Positions 12,859-22,500 of a stretch of DNA of 64,000 nucleotides are shown one piece after another. The first letter of the stretch is position 1; every line of letters starts with the position of its first letter. The stretch is taken from the NCBI GenBank assembly GCA_000004985.1, contig GG738906.1. One strand, 5' to 3'. The stretch is from Naegleria gruberi (taxonomy: Eukaryota). Under the pieces are notes generated by a model, which was not told where the DNA came from, made no database searches, and saw nothing but the letters and a program-made list of their open reading frames with translations. Made by a program: the position numbers and the translations under genes.

Positions 12859-15800
12859 ATGAGAAGAAGAATTAACAAGAACCAACAACAACCCCGAACA
12901 AACAAGAAGAGGGAATTATCGGAAAGTGAATCAGAGACTTCTGATGACGATTCTTCAAATTATGATCAATTGGAATCACTGTTGAAAAAACAAAAAAATA
13001 TTAATGAAAATTTCAATGATACAAACGAAGTTGACAATATCATAAAGAGAGAGAAGGGAAATTTTCTTGTTAAAGTTAGATCCAAATCATATTGGGACAC
13101 TGTATGGATGTCAAGAGAGGAGTTGAATAGAAAGGCTACCTTTAAATTGCTCTGGTTTGAAAATAATTATGGAACTAATAGTAGCGTTAATCTTTTAAAT
13201 AATGATTGGACCAAGATTGACTATCTTCTCGATGAACCAAAACCAGGTCAATATCTTGTCAAGTGGAGAGGGTTGCCAATATCAGAGAGCACTTTGGAAA
13301 CTAAATCTAAGATTATTTCAAATACATCAAACATTGAGTTTGAAAAACACTATTCACACTTTAAGAATAGAAAGAGCTTTAAATGTCCTACAAATGATGA
13401 AATTGAAAAAATTAGAATTGGGTTTCAATATGATTCCATGACTCTCACTAATCCTCATACTGAATTGATGAGTTACCAAAAACAAGCTGTAGAATGGTTG
13501 ATTTCGTCTTGGAAGAAACATGATAATTGTGTTCTTTCGGGTAAGTAGTCGATGTATTAAGATTATTTATTTAACTTGTTATTAGATGAGCCTGGTCTTG
13601 GAAAAACCGTACAGACCATTTCATTTCTTTCCATTATGAAAAGATATCTCAGTGGCCCATTTCTTATTGTTACCCCTCCTCAAAGATTACCGTTTTGGAA
13701 TTCTCAATTAGAAGTTTGGGCACCAGAATTAGTAACAGCTACATTTATTGGATCTAATCAAGATAAGCAAATGATCAAAAGACATTTAATCCAAGATAAG
13801 AATAATTTTTATTCGAATGTAATACTTACAACATTTGATTCCATGATATTGGATGAGAGTTGGTTCAAATTACATAATTGGCCCATTATTGTATTGGACC
13901 AAGCTCACAAAATTAGAAATTCAAAAACCAAATCCTTTTCTCTTATGAAAAGGCTTCAATATAATTTTCTCTTACTAGTCAGTGAAAACATTTACACTGG
14001 TACAACACATGATGAATACAAAGAAATACTTGATTTAGCAAGGATATCACCAAATTCAATATTGAGAAGAGAGAAGAACAATCTTAAAGATGTATTTAAA
14101 CCAAAATCTGATTTAATAATTGAAATACCTCTATCACCTTTACAAAAAAATTATTTGGCAAAGATTTTCAGACAAAATTCTTCAGTTTTATGTCAAGTAT
14201 TTGATGAGAAAAACTATTCAAAAGAGAATAAGGACAGATTAATAAGAGCATATCAACAATTATCTAATGCTTGCAATCATCCATATTTGAATATTGCGAG
14301 TGAAGATGAGCCTCAAAGACATGATCCAGTAGCATACTTTAATACTTATTTACAGGCATCTCCAAAATTATTGGTTTTGGAACGTTTGTTGGAAAAATTC
14401 TCCCAACAAAATGTGATTATTTTCAGTTCTTTTCCATGTATTATTGAGGAAATGCTAATACAACAAAAGAAAAATTACTCAATTATTACCAGTGAAAATG
14501 TAAATAATGTAACAACTGAAAAAATTGTTCTCATCTACCACAAAACAAGGCTTATTCCTGTCAAGTTTAACCACTTTGATTATATTATCATGTTTGATTC
14601 AGATTGGAATCCTACTCTTGACAATAGTCAAATTGAACGGTTCTTCACAATAGGTAAGGATACCAAAGTAATTAGATTGATGTGTGCAAAGGAATTGGAG
14701 AGGTTTCAACTCGAATTATCAGAAAAGGATAACTTGAAAGGATTTTTTAATAAGAGAATTAATGATCTCGATAAAGCCTTTAGGTCTATTGCTAAGGAAC
14801 TTTTACTAGGTGAGCAAGACCAATTAAATGCTCTTAATGATGCTTCTAGACTGGAATTGTCCAATCAAGATATTGAAAATATGCTTTCTAAAGGGTTACA
14901 ATCAGTGGAAAAAGATTCAACAGTAACAACAAATATTACTACTTCCAATAGATATTGGTGTCATGTTTTTGGTATCCCAAGTACAAATCAAATTGTAGAT
15001 ATTAGCACTCAAAATGATGTTTTGTATATTCCTACCATGAATTCTTTCTTGAATTATGATATTCATTTAGAAGAAAAAAAGGATGACTTTGAAGAATATT
15101 CGAGTGAATATCAAAGTATGAATATTGCATTAGAACTTTCCAATACAGTCGAATCCCTTGTGGTTGATGTTGAAAATATCAAAAAAGCACTTGAAAAAAC
15201 AGCCGACAAGGAAAAGAGAAGGAATCTAGTTGATGTTTTGCGAAAGAAAGAATTCAAGATTGAAGAAGAATCTATTCGTTTAAGAATTTATAGTCGGCAA
15301 ATGAAAAATTCAAACATTAGAATAATATCTCCAACTAATGTGCTTGTAAAGGGGTTTACAAGAAAAGAAAGGTTAGTATTTTATCAAACCATACTTAGAT
15401 ATGGTTTAGGAATAGGATCCACCCAAGATGGAAAATGGCAACAGTTTTACTCTATCATTAATCCAAAATTGAGAGGAAAGTCGATTCAGGAAATTAAGGA
15501 ATTTGGTGCTTTTATTTTGGATCACTTATCAGAGCAAGTAGATCAAAATTATTCACACTACTCAGATGGAACACCTACAGATTCTATCAATGGCACCAAG
15601 ATTTTACAACGAATTGGTTCTATGTTTTTAGTACATTCCATTGTTGAAAAGTATTCCCAATTTCCTATTGAAACTAATTTTGATATTAGTTTTGTAGAGT
15701 CAGTTTTGGAACTCAACGAAAGAAGTACTGATTTTTTTGAGATGGAGAAACCAACTACTGATTGGAAATTGGTTCATGATTTGATAGTGTTGAGAGGATG

Positions 15801-16005
15801 TACCAAGTACGGATTTGCTAGGTGGGATCAAATTCTTCAAGATGATACTTTTGAATTTACAACATTGAAAACCATAATTTCAAGTTTATTCCAAAACTCT
15901 AAAAAGATGAAAATAGATTTTCTAAATAATAGATTAATCAAATTGTTAGAATGCTTGAGCGCAGAGTTTGCAAAACAGAAAAATAAACTTTCAATAATAG
16001 ATTAA
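12859..16005 (+). CDS. Chromodomain + SNF2-family (CHD-like) remodeller paralogue with degenerate ATPase motifs. Exons 12859..13540 and 13586..16005 (phase-1 intron GTAAGTAG…TATTAG)
   Basis: Chromo-like segments FLVKVRSKSYWDTVWMSREEL and YLVKWRGLPISESTLE. SNF2 motif I is LSDEPGLGKTVQTISFL and motif Ia is LIVTPPQRLPFWNSQLEVWAP. Motif II reads VLDQAHKIRN (DEAH→DQAH). In the helicase-C region, IIMFDSDWNPTLDNSQIERFFTIGKD replaces QAxxRAHRIGQ. Confidence 0.75.
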
Positions 16006-16078
16006 ACAAATTTTTTGAACAAGCTCAATAAATTTCCAATTAACATGCTTGCTACAGGTTAAAACAATTTTAGAAAAA

Positions 16079-16453
16079 ATGTCATCGGTAGGTGCTCTTC
16101 TTTTTATTTTATATTAAATATTGGTGATCATCAATTTTACTTTGTTGTGCGAATAGTTTTTAGAAAGACTTATTAATCCAAAACCTTTTCTCAATGACAA
16201 CATCGGAAAAGCTGTAGTAGTTAAACTTAAATGGGGAATGGAATATAAAGGTTTATTAAAATCTGTTGATGATTACATGAATTTCCAATTGGCAAATACT
16301 GAAGAGTGGATAGAAGGAAAATTTAAAGGAAATTTAGGAGATGTATTGATACGATGCAATAATGTAATGTATCTTCGTCAAGTTGATGAAGAAATAGAAA
16401 AAGAATATACACAAAGTGGGGCTTCTACTGAAGATGTAAAAATGGAACAATAA
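16079..16453 (+). CDS. LSM6: Sm-like protein LSm6. Exons 16079..16087 (a 9-nt ATG exon) and 16157..16453
   Basis: Exon 2 encodes …[66 protein letters not shown], which aligns to human LSM6 (…PVVVKLNSGVDYRGVLACLDGYMNIALEQTEEYVNGQLKNKYGDAFIRGNNVLYI). The Sm fold begins upstream of the ORF-track Met, so there must be a 5' exon. I propose ATGTCATCG|GTAGGT…GAATAG|, which carries lower confidence. Confidence 0.7.
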
Positions 16454-16670
16454 TGAAGAGAATACAAATTTTGGAGTTTTATTTTGGAGTTTAATGTTTG
16501 TCTAAGTAGAAAGCTTTGATCACAAAAACACCTAGGAAAAAGTTTTAGAATAAAGACTAATTGTTTGCTCTCTAATAACAGGGTTAATTTCCGGTAGAAA
16601 CATTGATGGTATTCAAAAAGTCAAACAATATTCAAATGTCATCAATCCATAAAAAAATCAGATCAAAACA

Positions 16671-17610
16671 ATGCCAAGTAACGAGACAGAAATCAAATGT
16701 GTTGTTGTTGGAGACGGAGCTGTTGGTAGGTTTTGTTGAACTGCTTTTTGCAAATAGATGATCATCTAAAATATTAAATTAACCGATATCAAGGTAAAAC
16801 ATGTCTTGTAGGTTTAACTTTTAGAAAATATGCATGGATTTGAGCAATATTGTTTAATTATTGATCCGAAGGTTAAAGTTTATGTCGACAATAAATTTCC
16901 AGAAGGATATGTTCCAACTGTATTCGAAAATACATACCTCATTAAGGAGTATAGAGGACTGAGAGTAAATTTAGGAATTTGGGATACAGGTAAGTGTTTT
17001 AATTAATCAATAGAGTGAGAAATAATGACATATCCTACAGCTGGACAAGAAGATTAGTATGTTTTTATTTGAAATTGAATCTCTTACCATTTTCTTTGTA
17101 GTGGTAGGTTTCTAAATTTACAAACAATTAATCTTCAAATCAGATCGATTGAGACCTCTATCGTATCCAGGAGCTAATATAATTGTATTATGTTTGAGTA
17201 TAGTTGGTATCAAACCATTCGATAATATCAATTACAAGTACGTAAATTTCTTTTTAAAATGAATTTTTAATGAAAATTACAGATGGTTACCTGAAGTTCG
17301 TCATCATTGCCCAAATATTCCATATGTTATAGCAGCAACAAAATCAGATCTTCGAGAAGACCCACAATCTTTAAAGGAATTATCAAATAAGGGTTTACAA
17401 CCAGTTACAACAGAGCAAGTTAAGGAATTTTCAGATGAAATTAAGGCGTTTGGATACCAAGAATGCTCAAGCAGATTGAATAAGGGTGTAAATGAACTCT
17501 TTGAATTAGTAATGAAAGCTGTACTATTTCCAAATGAAGGGGCCAACTCAAAAGCTTCATCTTCAGCTTCATCTGCAGACGCAAAGAAGAAGAATTGTCT
17601 TTTAATGTAA
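16671..17610 (+). CDS. Rho-family small GTPase with a C-terminal CAAX box (CLLM); at least 7 exons: 16671..16725, 16794..16807, 16872..16989, 17041..17056, [17102..17103], 17144..17237, 17283..17610
   Basis: Joined product: [65 protein letters not shown]|QED(Y)|DRLRPLSYPGANIIVLCLSIVGIKPFDNINYK|WLPEVRHHCPNIPYVIAATKSDLRED…KKKNCLLM. This is collinear with RhoA ([26 protein letters not shown]…WDTAGQEDYDRLRPLSYP…KWTPEVKHFCPN). Donors are GTAGGT, GTAAGT, GTATGT and GTACGT. Confidence 0.75.
17102..17103 (+). other. Candidate 2-nt micro-exon (TG) of the Rho GTPase gene, lying between acceptor CTTACCATTTTCTTTGTAG| and donor |GTAGGT
   Basis: Exon 4 must end in phase 2 (…GAA GAT TA|GTATGT). The DRLRPLSYP exon, after the only available acceptor CAAATCAG|, starts in phase 1 (|AT CGA TTG…). 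Only a TG micro-exon restores TA+T (Tyr) and G+AT (Asp) to give the conserved QEDYDRLRP. Confidence 0.35.
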
Positions 17611-17908
17611 AAAGTTGTAGTTTATGTTATAACAAATTTCTTATTTGAATGTGCTTGTACAAAATTATTTAATATGAAATTAATAATTTAAAATTTGTAA
17701 AAATTACGATATTATCACATTATAATTTCTCTCAAAAGGAGATATGAATTTGTTGAAAGAGATACACTCTGGCTGCTAGACAATAAGCTCTCCTTATCAC
17801 CAAAGAAGTAATCGCCATGCCTTTAATTAATTAAAAAAAATTGAATGAAGGCAACCCTGTGGAAGGTTGATTGTTTTTTATTGTAGATTTAAAATCGTAG
17901 ATTATCAA

Positions 17909-17917
17909 GGGCGGGCA
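17909..17917. promoter_or_regulatory. GC-box-like element GGGCGGGCA, ~90 bp upstream of the 18009 gene
   Basis: An isolated G+C-rich 9-mer in A+T-rich intergenic DNA. The same core recurs at 32968..32976 and, reverse-complemented, at 59826..59832, each 90–340 bp upstream of a start codon. Confidence 0.3.
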
Positions 17918-18008
17918 CTATAGTGAACAATAAAAACACATCCAACAAAGTAGTAATATAATACTTTAAGAGAGGATTTGAGGAAACAACTAAAATATTG
18001 AATTTAAA

Positions 18009-19520
18009 ATGTCTGATACAGGATTAAATGTAGATTTGGCTCAAAGTATGATGATTTCTCCCCAATCAATAGTTGTTGCGAACAATAATCATCACGGAAG
18101 CATTGTTAGTGGAGCAGGGAGAAGTTATAACACAAGGAGAATTCCTCAAACAATTGCAGGAGGAAACCCTAGCAATAATGGAGGTGGAAACACCTTTTTG
18201 ACAGAAGTTGCAACCAACGACCATTACGACACTAGAATAGTATACCCAAATGTTGCAGAGACACCTCATCCTGCTATTACTAAGGGAAAGTCATACCATG
18301 CACCGGTTCAAGAGCTTGGATCCCAACTTTACGCTCTTCATAAGAAACAACAACAAATTTTACGTAAAATTAACGATCAGAGGCAAACAATACATCAACC
18401 AATAGTTGTTCATGGTTATAAGGACTCTCAATTTAATAATGGAATTAGAAAATTACCTCCACCACAAAAAAAGGATGCCTACTATCCTCTTAAAAAATTG
18501 AATAAGAGGAAACAGATTGAGGAGTTGGCAGCAGAACTATCTAAAAAAGATAATTTTGGTCACTCCTTTTCCAAACACTCTGTTGATGATGACACACTCT
18601 CTGTAAGATCAAGGAGATCTACAAAGTCAAGAAGTCTACCACCAATATCAACAAGATCAGAGAACAGTGATGCCATAAGCCAGGCATTCAGTGATCTCAA
18701 TCCTGATAGGGATTATCACGATGACAAAATTTCTCAATTTTCCTCAACATCTAAGAATTCAAGAAAAAGTAGAAAGGGTGAGTCAGAGGTTTCATTTTCT
18801 ATTGGAAGTGATGCAGAGAGTGATCGTATTAGACAATTAGAGGAGAGTTTGAAACAGGAGGAGAGCTCAAGACAAACCTTCCTCAAGGTTCTCGATGACA
18901 TTCAGAAAAAGCAGGAATATTTATTGAGCAAACTTTCTCCAGATGACAGAAAACAATTTGAAAACCTCTATGGCGCGTCATCTCTTGTTGCAAGCTTAAT
19001 GCCTTCCAAGGATACTGATTCAGTTTCACATCTTTCTACTAAAGATGTAGATGCACTCTCAACTAGGGAGCACTTACCAAAACTCGACAATCAACCCCCT
19101 TCTCAAAAGGGGCCCAAAAGTGTCTTCTCTGCCGCTCCTTCACAACACTCCCAAGTATCGAGACACTCCTACCATTCACAACAATCTCAACAATCAAACA
19201 TATCAAAATCAGCTAGTCAATACTCCTATCAATCCAGAAATTCAAATACTTCTCACACCTCTGGAAAAACCACAACATCTCAAATATCGACCATTAAGAA
19301 AATGATTAAGGAAATGTTCCATACTATTGTTAGTACAGAATCAATTGTGACTCTGGATCAGTCAACTCAGTTAGCTAAACTCTTAGAAAAATATCCTGAT
19401 GTTTTGAATGAAGAAGACAAACAGAGGTTTTATGCAAAGCACAATGACCCAAGATTTAATGGCGCCAGCTATAGGTCATTAAACACTAAGGATCATTTTG
19501 GAAGGGTTGTGTTTTATTAA
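18009..19520 (+). CDS. Hypothetical S/Q/N-rich protein (503 aa) with a central coiled-coil-like segment
   Basis: Long single ORF with typical codon usage. Low-complexity Ser/Gln tracts and an EESLKQEESSRQTFLKVLDDIQKKQEYLLSKL heptad-like region. No recognisable domain. Confidence 0.45.
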   Translation: MSDTGLNVDLAQSMMISPQSIVVANNNHHGSIVSGAGRSYNTRRIPQTIAGGNPSNNGGGNTFLTEVATNDHYDTRIVYPNVAETPHPAITKGKSYHAPVQELGSQLYALHKKQQQILRKINDQRQTIHQPIVVHGYKDSQFNNGIRKLPPPQKKDAYYPLKKLNKRKQIEELAAELSKKDNFGHSFSKHSVDDDTLSVRSRRSTKSRSLPPISTRSENSDAISQAFSDLNPDRDYHDDKISQFSSTSKNSRKSRKGESEVSFSIGSDAESDRIRQLEESLKQEESSRQTFLKVLDDIQKKQEYLLSKLSPDDRKQFENLYGASSLVASLMPSKDTDSVSHLSTKDVDALSTREHLPKLDNQPPSQKGPKSVFSAAPSQHSQVSRHSYHSQQSQQSNISKSASQYSYQSRNSNTSHTSGKTTTSQISTIKKMIKEMFHTIVSTESIVTLDQSTQLAKLLEKYPDVLNEEDKQRFYAKHNDPRFNGASYRSLNTKDHFGRVVFY

Positions 19521-19563
19521 AATTACTAATAAACTTGTAAATGTTAAAATACATGACAAGGAC

Positions 19564-22500
19564 TTAATTATTAGAATGTTGAAATTGTTGATTGAATTCT
19601 TCTTCTTGTAAATCAATGTTAGTGGGAGAATTACTACTAATTGCCAGGTCAGATAGGGCAGAAAAAGAAGATGACTCAGAAACTCTAAATTCCTTATTAT
19701 CTGCAAGTGTGGACTGTTCTTTGATTTCTGGTGGTGCTTTCTTTTTGATGGCAAGATCCATCTCTTTTTTGATTTCGTTTAGAATGAAATTCTTTTCTTC
19801 CACAACATACTTGTCCTCTGAATATTTGATTGAGAAGAAGGGATCATTTAGTATTTGAGCAGCTGTTGGTCTCTTGGATGGATTCAAGTTAAAACAATGT
19901 CGAATGATTAATTTTAACTCTTCTCTACATTCTGGAATATAATTTACAAGAGAATTGGCATTCTCCAACATGTATTCAACTTGTTCTCGTGTTGATTTTT
20001 TCACCAATCCTCCACTTAATTCCCAAGGATTGTATCCAGTAATCATCTCACAAAGGGTACACCCAAAGCTCCAAATATCTGAAGCTGCAGCATTTCTTTT
20101 TGCCTTGTAAGGTTTTGATGAGCTAGGATTTGCGTAGTAGTGATTGATAATTTCAGGTGCCCTTAATATATTCAATTAAAACGTTTAATACTTATTTCAA
20201 TATAATAACTCAAATTTGAACTTACATGAACATTAGTGTTCCACCAATAGGTTCATCAGTATCCTCTGGAATATTTGAGGATGGTAATTCATCTTTCAAT
20301 TGAATACTTTCCCCAAAATCACTCAATACTACATTATCCTCATCTTTGAGTAGAATATTTGAACATTTAATGTCTCTGTGAATAATAGCTTTTCTCTGAT
20401 GATTAGATTCATGCAAATATGCCAATGCAGACAAAATTTGAACAGAGTATTTTTGAATGAGGAAATAACTCAACTTTGGATACTTAAAACCAAAATAACT
20501 TCTCTCAGATTTCATTATTTTCTGAAGCATACTCTTAACACTTCCCCCTCCCATGTACTCCATTTTTATATAGTAATTGGATCCAGAATAACTCGTTGAT
20601 AAATACTTGATAATGTGAGGATGATCTAATTTTTGAACCAAGTCAACTTCTTGTTCAATCTTTTTGATGGGAATCTTTTTGAGGTCAAGTTGTTTGATAG
20701 CAACAAAATTATATGGTGCCACTCTGTCAATTCTATTCAAATATATTTGAATACATTATTGTAAAATGTAATCAAAATGAATGAGATAGTGAGAATACTT
20801 ACGCTAATTGAACAACACCAAAAGTTCCCTCTCCCAAACCATGAACATACATCCAGTCTGTCTCATTATAAATCAATTCTACTTCAAATTCATCTTTTTG
20901 AACAGCATTTGAGAAGAAGTAATTTAACATTTTTTCCATATCCTCTGAGGTATGTACATTGATTTTCTGATCACCCATTTCATATATTAAACTTAATTCA
21001 TTATTGTGAATCATTCTGTTAGTATTGCTGAAAAAATTTTCTTTCAATCCATTCAATAAGGTTTCAAATCGTGTGGTGTTTGTAATATCCATCTTGATTA
21101 ATTTAGAGCTATGTTTAACAATTAATTGTCTCTTGTTAATATTCTTTAGTAATTTATCACAATAATCGTAGAGTGGTGATACTAGATCAATCTTATCAGG
21201 AAATTCCTGATGTAGGTCGAGTGGATTAAGATTAAATTGTTGAATTAATAATTTCAAGAATGGCTTGCATGATAATTCAAAAAATTTTACCCCTAAAAAA
21301 AGTATAAATTTTCTGAAATGACTTTCCAAATGGTGTACACTTATTTCTTCTTTCAATTCAGTCCTTTTAAAATGTATATATGCTGTTAGATCCATCATGT
21401 CATATTCTGAAGGTTCAATAGAAGGATCAGATATTATAGTGATCAGTTTTTCGAATTTCTCTTTGAAAATTGCTTTCAGTTTCTTATAGATGAGTGTGTC
21501 TTTTTTAGAGAACTTTTTGATAAAATCTTCCACTTCCTTCTTTTTTGCAAGACTAGCCGGGGTTTTACCATCAGAATCTTTTTTACCTTTATCTGCACAG
21601 TGTGTTAGGAGACTTTTGACAATTTCTAAATCTCCCTTCTCAGAAGATATGTGAAGTGGTGTTCTGCCCTTCTAAAGATGAAATTTAATAATTTTTACAA
21701 TAAAATCAACTAAAACTTACGCTGTCAATAACATCTGCCTTGGCACTATGTTTCAGCAATAGTTCCACAATGTGTGTAAAAGAATTCCGACAGGCTATCA
21801 ATAGTGGTGTGGTTCTATCTTTTCCATTTGACATTATGTTAACGGAAGACTTGGCTTCAAGGAGAATTTTAACAATTAGCTCATTACCATTTAAACAGGC
21901 AATATGGAGACACGTCTTGTTTCAAATTAAAGTTTGTGCAAAAGAGATGAAAACATACCAGTCCTTTCTATTTTGAAGGTTGAATACTAAGAGATTATTA
22001 ACAAACCTACATAATTCGTTTGATTGGTATTTGCTCCTCTTTCAATTAAATATTGACTAATGGAAACATCATTTCTAGAAACTGCTTCAAAGAGAGGAGT
22101 TTCATGATACTTTAATTGTAAAAATATAAAGAGAAATTAACCACATACATATCTATTTGGCTGTTGAATATTTGAATTGTAATCTTCAACAAGTAGTTTT
22201 ACAATTTTCAAATTTCTTCCTCTAACTGATAAATGAAGAGGTGTTCCATCATACTGAGGAGTCAAATTCCAAAAGATGTTATCAATTCCAATATGAATGA
22301 ATACTCACTGCTGATTCCATATCTACCCTAGCTCCATTTTCCAATAAGAATTTAGCAATTTTATAATATCCTAATCTACATGCCAACATCAGTGGTGTCT
22401 GTTAATTGTCAGGCTATTTAGCTGATCCAAAACATTCCGAAAACCTACATAAAATTCCTATTGTAGAAGAATATTATTGATCAAATTATAGTGCCACTCA

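Follow-up and report, generated by a model that had tools for sequence, protein, structure and literature searches.

Introduction

Exons shorter than a codon have been documented in a few genes. Validated 1-nt exons were described in Arabidopsis APC11 (Guo & Liu 2015, PMC4674806) and in plant VPS55 (Yu et al. 2022, PMC8831610), and a 1-nt exon with read support was found in the CYP621A P450 genes of Fusarium (Nelson & Syed 2026, PMC12940212). Sequential splicing is the model put forward for the Arabidopsis exon (PMC4674806), and reverse-transcriptase-mediated intron loss has been proposed for the intron-less APC11 copies of plants (PMC8831610). The 9-nt mini-exon of potato invertase and the 6-nt exon of chicken cTNT are constitutive and need strong flanking intron signals, and in potato, the downstream intron is spliced out first and the upstream one second (PMC4674806). 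A phrase search of the literature, with partial coverage, turned up no natural exon of 2 nt, and a literature search, also of partial coverage, found no paper linking Naegleria to micro-exons. In the literature searched, the documented exons of less than 3 nt are a few 1-nt cases from land plants and Fusarium; the Naegleria gene described here would be a 2-nt case in Discoba, a very distant lineage.

Here, we analyzed a stretch of 64,000 nt of Naegleria gruberi DNA (the window), with a G+C content of ~33% and four long ORFs that exactly match N. gruberi NEG-M EFC38556.1, EFC38557.1, EFC38558.1, and EFC38562.1. An initial annotation had proposed that a Rho GTPase gene in this window depends on a micro-exon of two nucleotides, TG, and the comparative evidence presented below supports this interpretation with high confidence. 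The locus is very probably a functional Rho-family small GTPase gene, whose mRNA would be built from seven exons, the fifth being the dinucleotide TG at 17102-17103.

Results

Gene model and predicted product

The predicted structure of the gene is given in Table 1.

Table 1. Predicted exons and introns of the Rho-family gene and its upstream neighbor (window positions).
Feature	Position (strand)	Length (nt)	Description
Rho-family GTPase gene	16671..17610 (+)		7 exons of 55, 14, 118, 16, 2, 94, and 328 nt
Exon 1	16671..16725 (+)	55	ATG to first base of the Gly codon in GDGAVG/K; donor GTAGGT
Intron 1	16726..16793 (+)	68	GTAGGT...CAAG
Exon 2	16794..16807 (+)	14	Micro-exon GTAAAACATGTCTT; codes (G)KTCL, P-loop
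Intron 2	16808..16871 (+)	64	GTAGGT...GAAG
Exon 3	16872..16989 (+)	118	Peptide ends ...GIWDT plus first base of the Ala codon
Intron 3	16990..17040 (+)	51	GTAAGT...TACAG
Exon 4	17041..17056 (+)	16	Micro-exon CTGGACAAGAAGATTA; (A)GQED plus TA, first two bases of Tyr
Intron 4	17057..17101 (+)	45	GTATGT...CTCTTACCATTTTCTTTGTAG
Exon 5	17102..17103 (+)	2	Micro-exon TG; T, third base of Tyr (TAT); G, first base of Asp (GAT)
Intron 5	17104..17143 (+)	40	GTAGGTTTCTAAATTTACAAACAATTAATCTTCAAATCAG
Exon 6	17144..17237 (+)	94	AT CGA TTG...; codes (D)RLRPLSYPGANIIVLCLSIVGIKPFDNINYK
Intron 6	17238..17282 (+)	45	GTACGT...TTACAG; phase 2, within the Lys/Arg codon before WLPEV
Exon 7	17283..17610 (+)	328	Includes the TAA stop; WLPEVRHHCP...KKKNCLLM, CAAX box
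LSm-type gene	16066..16454 (+)		Apparent 9-nt first coding exon (ATGTCATCG); intron GTAGGT...GAATAG of ~70 nt

When TG was included, the seven-exon model generated a 208-aa ORF that ends in CLLM, a CAAX prenylation box. This product matched the Pfam Ras family (PF00071) with E = 5.8e-42 and aligned full-length to yeast Rho1 (E = 3.3e-60), WDTAGQEDYDRLRPLSYP being identical in both. The motifs found were GDGAVGKT (G1), DTAGQE (G3), TKxD (G4), the Rho-type switch II YDRLRPLSYP, and the CAAX box, and a segment aligned to the Rho insert region was also present. The assignment to the Rho GTPases made in the initial annotation was thus confirmed by the Pfam match and the Rho1 alignment, but a likeness to RhoA in particular was not, as Rac1, Cdc42, and RhoA scored about equal to Rho1 against the 208-aa product.

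All six introns are of the GT...AG class, with lengths of 40-68 nt and donors of the GTANGT type. The donor GTAGGT, earlier taken to be the one preferred by this gene, is used by half of them (16726, 16808, and 17104). In the introns that flank the dinucleotide, a yUnAy-like motif, CTTAC, TTGAC, or TTTAC, lies 12-24 nt upstream of the acceptor, which is the first AG past the candidate branch point. Since the N. gruberi genome has a mean of 1.7 exons per gene and introns of 203 bp (PMC8296547), a gene with seven exons and introns of 40-68 nt is exceptionally intron-dense. This density is concentrated in the 5' third, with exons of 14, 16, and 2 nt in the window and of 5, 9, 23, and 2 nt in a relative from JGI metagenome 3300002220 (hereafter L006). 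Exon 1 is also of 55 nt, exon 2 of 14 nt, and exon 4 of 16 nt in Naegleria fowleri and Naegleria lovaniensis. As judged from these predicted structures, the gene is tolerant of tiny exons, which we count as support for the 2-nt exon.

The dinucleotide is required to keep the reading frame

Exon 4 encodes the G3-box Gly and the catalytic Gln, ends in ...GAA GAT TA, and is directly followed by GTATGT; intron 5 ends in ...CAAATCAG (...caaatcag), and exon 6 opens at 17144 with ATCGATTGAGACC. We enumerated the single introns that could connect both exons, covering the GT-AG, GC-AG, and AT-AC combinations, and none of them restored TAT GAT. The claim that no canonical GT-AG intron properly joins the QED exon to the DRLRPLSYP exon was therefore sustained, and it could be extended, as no non-canonical single intron, GC-AG or AT-AC, U12-type included, preserved the motif. 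Four single introns (GT-AG or AT-AC) left the frame open to the normal stop, and all of them deleted or replaced conserved switch-II residues, giving for instance QEDYIVGIKPF. As read from the sequence, a single excision giving GATTATGATCGA is impossible, because the longest left match, GATTA, and the longest right match, GATCGA, are together one base short.

Next, internal exons were enumerated as AG/X/GY segments of 1-39 nt, with flanking introns of at least 25 nt on each side. Exactly one frame-open segment was found in N. gruberi, and this was TG, in agreement with the earlier statement that TG at 17102..17103 is the only frame-consistent solution. The dinucleotide was also the only frame-keeping candidate in N. 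fowleri and N. lovaniensis, and in L006 there was one additional candidate, of 11 nt, which disrupted the motif; hence, in the four taxa, inclusion of the dinucleotide was the only solution that was both in frame and motif-preserving. Joining exon 4 straight to exon 6 gave GAT TAA, a stop after 67 residues, and skipping of the dinucleotide created TAA at the junction in all four taxa. With TG included, the junction reads GAT-TA/TG/AT-CGA, and the Tyr-Asp pair of the invariant switch-II motif DTAGQEDYDRLRPLSYP is restored; the translations, TAT GAT here and TAC GAT in N. lovaniensis, bear out the proposal that the micro-exon supplies the third base of Tyr and the first base of Asp.

The segment is bounded directly by the acceptor AG and the donor GT of two complete introns, whose lengths fall in the 40-68 nt range of the other introns of the gene. 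Positions 17090-17109 read ttttctttgtag/TG/gtaggt. Both flanking introns carry their own donor (GTATGT and GTAGGT), a yUnAy-like motif, a pyrimidine-rich 3' end, and a terminal AG. In intron 4, the acceptor is the sole AG within the intron, the candidate branch site is CTTAC, assigned from the yUnAy consensus, and the good pyrimidine tract reported earlier for the TG acceptor is present. In a first-order Markov simulation, the chance of an AG/YG/GT site with both introns of at least 25 nt was ~1-3% per species and fell below 0.3% when a GTRNGT donor was also demanded; as the loci are homologous, these per-species values are not independent and are not to be multiplied. A separately assembled metagenome contig, L004 (run ERR1078381), N. 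gruberi-like and 99.8% identical, was base-identical across the region, and a sequencing or assembly error is thereby excluded.

A frame repair outside ordinary splicing, i.e., by a non-canonical or U12-type single intron, insertional RNA editing, or ribosomal frameshifting or bypassing, is extremely improbable. It was considered only for the extreme rarity of 2-nt exons, and nothing positive spoke for it beyond the existence of frame-open AT-AC combinations. These solutions delete or replace switch-II residues and come without the U12 donor ATATCCTT, TATGAT is unreachable by any single excision, and such processes give no account of an AG/YG/GTANGT site conserved inside diverged sequence in four taxa. 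Insertional editing of nuclear transcripts is not known from this group.

Three further classes were considered for the region and rejected. It is not a U12-type (AT-AC) intron, a class marked by a conserved ATATCCTT donor and a TCCTTAAC branch site, because it has no ATATCCTT donor; the frame-keeping AT-AC pairs begin with ATTAGTAT. It is not a recursive splice site, because the two bases between AG and GT have to be retained for the frame. In a stwintron, an internal intron disrupts a splice signal of the external intron, so that the latter does not work until the former has been excised; the region is not of this kind, because both introns are complete in the genome, with intact donors and acceptors, and excision of 17057-17143 as a whole leads to a stop.

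The strings that transcript reads would contain can be predicted for each structure. For N. gruberi NEG-M, inclusion of TG would give GGACAAGAAGATTATGATCGATTGAGACC, which contains CAAGAAGATTATGATCGATTGAGA; skipping (GATTA/ATCGA) would give GGACAAGAAGATTAATCGATTGAGACC, and the JGI model (junction GATACAG/ATCGATTG) would give TGGGATACAGATCGATTGAGACC. The predicted included strings are GGTCAGGAAGATTATGATCGTCTGAGGCC in N. fowleri and GGACAAGAAGATTACGATCGTCTGAGGCC in N. lovaniensis.

Conservation of the dinucleotide among relatives

The best protein matches to the product were heterolobosean, and four more versions of the gene were retrieved from the corresponding loci. An ortholog comparison, suggested in the initial annotation as a check, placed a 2-nt exon at the same codon position (phase 2 in Tyr, phase 1 in Asp) in N. 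fowleri, N. lovaniensis, and L006. In N. gruberi, the upstream exon is CTGGACAAGAAGATTA, and TG lies between introns of 45 and 40 nt. The N. fowleri gene (L001), which has the LSM gene upstream as in the window, shows CTGGTCAGGAAGATTA, an intron of 68 nt, TG, and an intron of 104 nt, and this structure recurs on a second N. fowleri contig (L007). In N. lovaniensis (L090), the upstream exon is again CTGGACAAGAAGATTA, followed by 91 nt, CG (TAC, still Tyr), and 55 nt, and in L006, ...CAGGACAAGAGGATTA is followed by 46 nt, TG, and 41 nt. The L006 product has 66-68% amino acid identity to the Naegleria and Willaertia orthologs. Willaertia magna (L002) has no intron on either side and contains TATGAT contiguously, reading GAAGATTATGATAGATTAAGACC without interruption. 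Inclusion of the dinucleotide gave a complete ORF of 204-208 aa in each of the four taxa. The introns that flank it, of 40-104 nt, are barely alignable; the dinucleotide is thus kept in orthologs despite diverged introns, and its bases are contiguous in the intron-less homolog. The telling point is that the AG/YG/GT site persists while the intron sequence around it has been replaced.

L006 was obtained with a protein search based on the C-terminal exon, which gave 11 candidates; as it missed the known N. fowleri ortholog, the word index of this search is lossy. A metagenome scan based on an alignment of the C-terminal exons, which ran on the generic Rho patterns DRLRPLSYP and WLPEV.HH, yielded no new ortholog, only 80 ordinary Rac/Rho loci with 40-50% identity.

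The coding sequences of N. fowleri and N. lovaniensis are 92% identical, whereas identity in the five introns is 42-58%, and their lengths diverge by as much as two-fold. Between these species, dN/dS was 0.055 overall, 0.033 for codons 1-67, and 0.071 for codons 70-205, and the other two frames of the downstream exons contain 5-12 stops each. These low values upstream and downstream of the junction indicate that both halves are translated, in frames that can be joined only by a 2-nt insert. The junction codons in the four taxa are TAT GAT, TAT GAT, TAC GAT, and TAT GAT; within the micro-exon, they differ by a single substitution, a synonymous T to C at the third position of Tyr. All the differences in exon 4 among the four taxa are also synonymous (GGA/GGT, CAA/CAG, and GAA/GAG). 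From these comparisons, the two-intron arrangement is best read as predating the divergence of N. gruberi, N. fowleri, N. lovaniensis, and L006, and as held by purifying selection on the protein.

These data bear on the possibility that TG is skipped, the main product being a 67-aa truncated peptide that ends in QED before the stop, or the locus being a decaying pseudogene. The direct join of exon 4 to exon 6 does use good GT and AG sites, with TAA in all four taxa, and N. lovaniensis is annotated in this way (C9374_001486). Nevertheless, this explanation is very unlikely: the downstream exons, at a dN/dS of 0.071, are under strong purifying selection and form one long open frame to a conserved CAAX box in all taxa, the AG/YG/GT site is conserved but the rest of the introns is not, and the 67-aa fragment would be devoid of the G4 and G5 motifs and of the prenylation site. 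Skipping of TG may occur as a minor or regulated isoform.

Public annotations of the gene

Judged against the predicted gene structure, the deposited models of the three Naegleria genomes are all wrong, each in another way. In N. gruberi, EFC38555.1 (XP_002671299.1, D2VX39; 202 aa) joins exon 3 to exon 6 and misses AGQEDY, with the G3 Gly and the catalytic Gln. For N. fowleri, the model FDP41_003655 (186 aa) and a duplicate of it, FDP41_004628, splice to a distant acceptor and thereby lose 19 residues (DRLRPLSYPGANVIIICIS). In N. lovaniensis, the gene is split in two, C9374_001486 (67 aa, ending at QED, identical to the skipped product) and an adjacent 158-aa fragment, the pair being located at L090 3001-4260. 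The N. fowleri copy on the duplicate contig (P0127) has a C-terminus that is frameshifted with respect to P0021.

If the public N. gruberi model were right, exon 4 and TG would be intronic, the junction would be GAT ACA G/AT CGA, and the protein would have no AGQEDY. Besides being the deposited structure, this join skips 16 + 2 = 18 nt, which leaves the frame intact in all three Naegleria species. It is highly improbable even so, as it strips DTAGQE of its G3-box Gly and its catalytic Gln, residues conserved throughout the aligned Rho proteins with this segment, and leaves in the intron a stretch whose nucleotides are conserved with synonymous changes only, whereas true introns barely align. 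The equivalent skip in L006 would be of 25 nt, with a shift of the frame, and the annotators of N. fowleri and N. lovaniensis arrived at other structures.

None of the corrected proteins, whether of N. gruberi, N. fowleri, or L006, had an exact match in a collection of 15 billion sequences, and no transcript-derived protein spanning the junction was found in that collection, the short N-terminal matches being other Rac types.

Intron evolution and gene neighborhood

A neighbor-joining tree gave ((N. gruberi,(N. fowleri, N. lovaniensis)), L006), with Willaertia outside and a weak support of 27% for the placement of L006. As read from this tree, the intron pair would have arisen once Willaertia had split off, or else Willaertia would have lost both introns together. 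N. gruberi, L006, and Willaertia all carry intron 6; its absence from both N. fowleri and N. lovaniensis suggests that it was lost on the branch of these two species. Ahead of the AGQED codons, Willaertia has an intron in phase 0 (GATACA/gtatgt...tatag/GCTGGA, L002 3481-3668), the Naegleria intron of the same region lies one base off, in phase 1 (GATACAG/gtaagt...acag/CTGGA, window 16981-17045), and the L006 counterpart is two codons upstream, in phase 0, after TGG. These offsets could be due to intron sliding or to independent gains. In L006, the 14-nt exon is further split into a 5-nt (GAAAG, 605-609) and a 9-nt exon (ACGTGTATG, 654-662), with introns of 36-44 nt.

The gene order DEAD helicase, small ORF, LSM, Rho is common to N. 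fowleri and N. lovaniensis, and the LSM gene is directly upstream of the Rho gene in N. gruberi too. The Rho gene of N. fowleri and N. lovaniensis is followed by an FMO-like gene, and the downstream gene of N. gruberi may be a different one.

Proposed splicing of the 2-nt exon

We infer from the sequence that TG is included in the mature mRNA. Each flanking intron would be recognized separately by intron definition, as expected for introns this short. U1 and U6 contact donor positions -3 to +6, and the factors at the 3' splice site make contact with the AG and the exon bases next to it; as a 2-nt exon is unable to hold a 3'-splice-site complex and a U1/U6-bound 5' splice site together, the introns would have to leave in succession. 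Such a stepwise removal and its order are deduced here from general knowledge of the spliceosome, and either order would lead to GAT-TA/TG/AT-CGA. The partly spliced intermediate would be GATTATGGTAGGTTTC if intron 4 is out first and TTTGTAGTGATCGATTG if intron 5 is out first. The process would resemble recursive splicing, but two bases stay behind.

No Rfam family was detected in 14000-20000 of the window, and no conserved RNA structure was found in the intron-microexon-intron region, whose folds in three taxa had z-scores of -1.76, +1.36, and -0.47. In the predicted fold of 17083-17110, the intron 4 branch region (CUUACCAUU) pairs with the micro-exon and the downstream donor (AGUGGUAGG); the whole-region z-score in N. 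gruberi was -1.76, and there was no equivalent pairing in the L006 and N. lovaniensis folds. This pairing is probably an incidental complementarity between a U1-like CTTACC motif and the 5' splice site.

Discussion

The comparative evidence argues for a Rho GTPase gene in which two nucleotides form an exon of their own. Each deposited model is without catalytic or switch residues, and studies of Naegleria cytoskeletal signaling that rely on those proteomes, that of the human pathogen N. fowleri included, inherit a broken Rho GTPase. A wider and speculative reading, which we regard as unlikely, is that the spliceosome of the Naegleria lineage routinely copes with exons of 2-16 nt, relying on strict intron definition and on removal in two ordered steps, the locus being the tip of a hidden and systematically mis-annotated class of ultra-short exons in heterolobosean genomes. 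Under the same speculation, inclusion could serve as a conserved on/off switch of the Rho GTPase, for example, in the amoeba-to-flagellate transition, because skipping always creates TAA at the junction.

The initial annotation had placed a 2-nt exon at the extreme lower limit of exon size. Since 1-nt exons are validated in Arabidopsis APC11 and in VPS55, and reported in Fusarium CYP621A, this view is not tenable. All the structural traits of the Naegleria site, general mis-annotation included, recur in these 1-nt cases. Together, these cases suggest that splicing of 1-2 nt exons is a general property of intron-definition spliceosomes, and the Naegleria locus, with its short introns, its 2-nt exon, and a stop on skipping, offers a compact natural substrate to study how two spliceosomes are ordered on adjacent introns.

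Like the predicted TG exon, the plant APC11 and VPS55 exons are shorter than 3 nt, internal, and coding, have canonical AG/GT flanks, and are essential for the frame; they are also conserved across species, missing from reference annotations, and have intron-less homologs where the bases are contiguous. A sequential, recursive-like removal of introns has been proposed for the plant exons, as it is here for TG. The plant exons are of 1 nt within much longer introns and were validated by RT-PCR, RNA-seq, and reporter constructs, whereas the Naegleria exon is of 2 nt, lies between introns of 40-104 nt in a heterolobosean amoeba (Discoba), and is predicted from comparative genomics. The Fusarium CYP621A exon was found in the same manner as TG, through a phase mismatch inside a highly conserved motif, an orthologous AG/N/GT site, and an intron-less reference. 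It is a single G in AGGGT, identical in all 24 genes and covered by SRA reads; the Naegleria exon is YG, and its synonymous substitution is a coding signature absent from the Fusarium case. Recursive splice sites share with TG a 3' splice site that is almost at once followed by a 5' splice site, and two ordered steps, but they retain nothing and serve very long introns, whereas in Naegleria, two bases would be kept and translated and the introns are tiny. Finally, the potato invertase and chicken cTNT exons are likewise micro-exons, constitutive and experimentally characterized, yet they are 3-4 times longer than TG and multiples of 3 nt.
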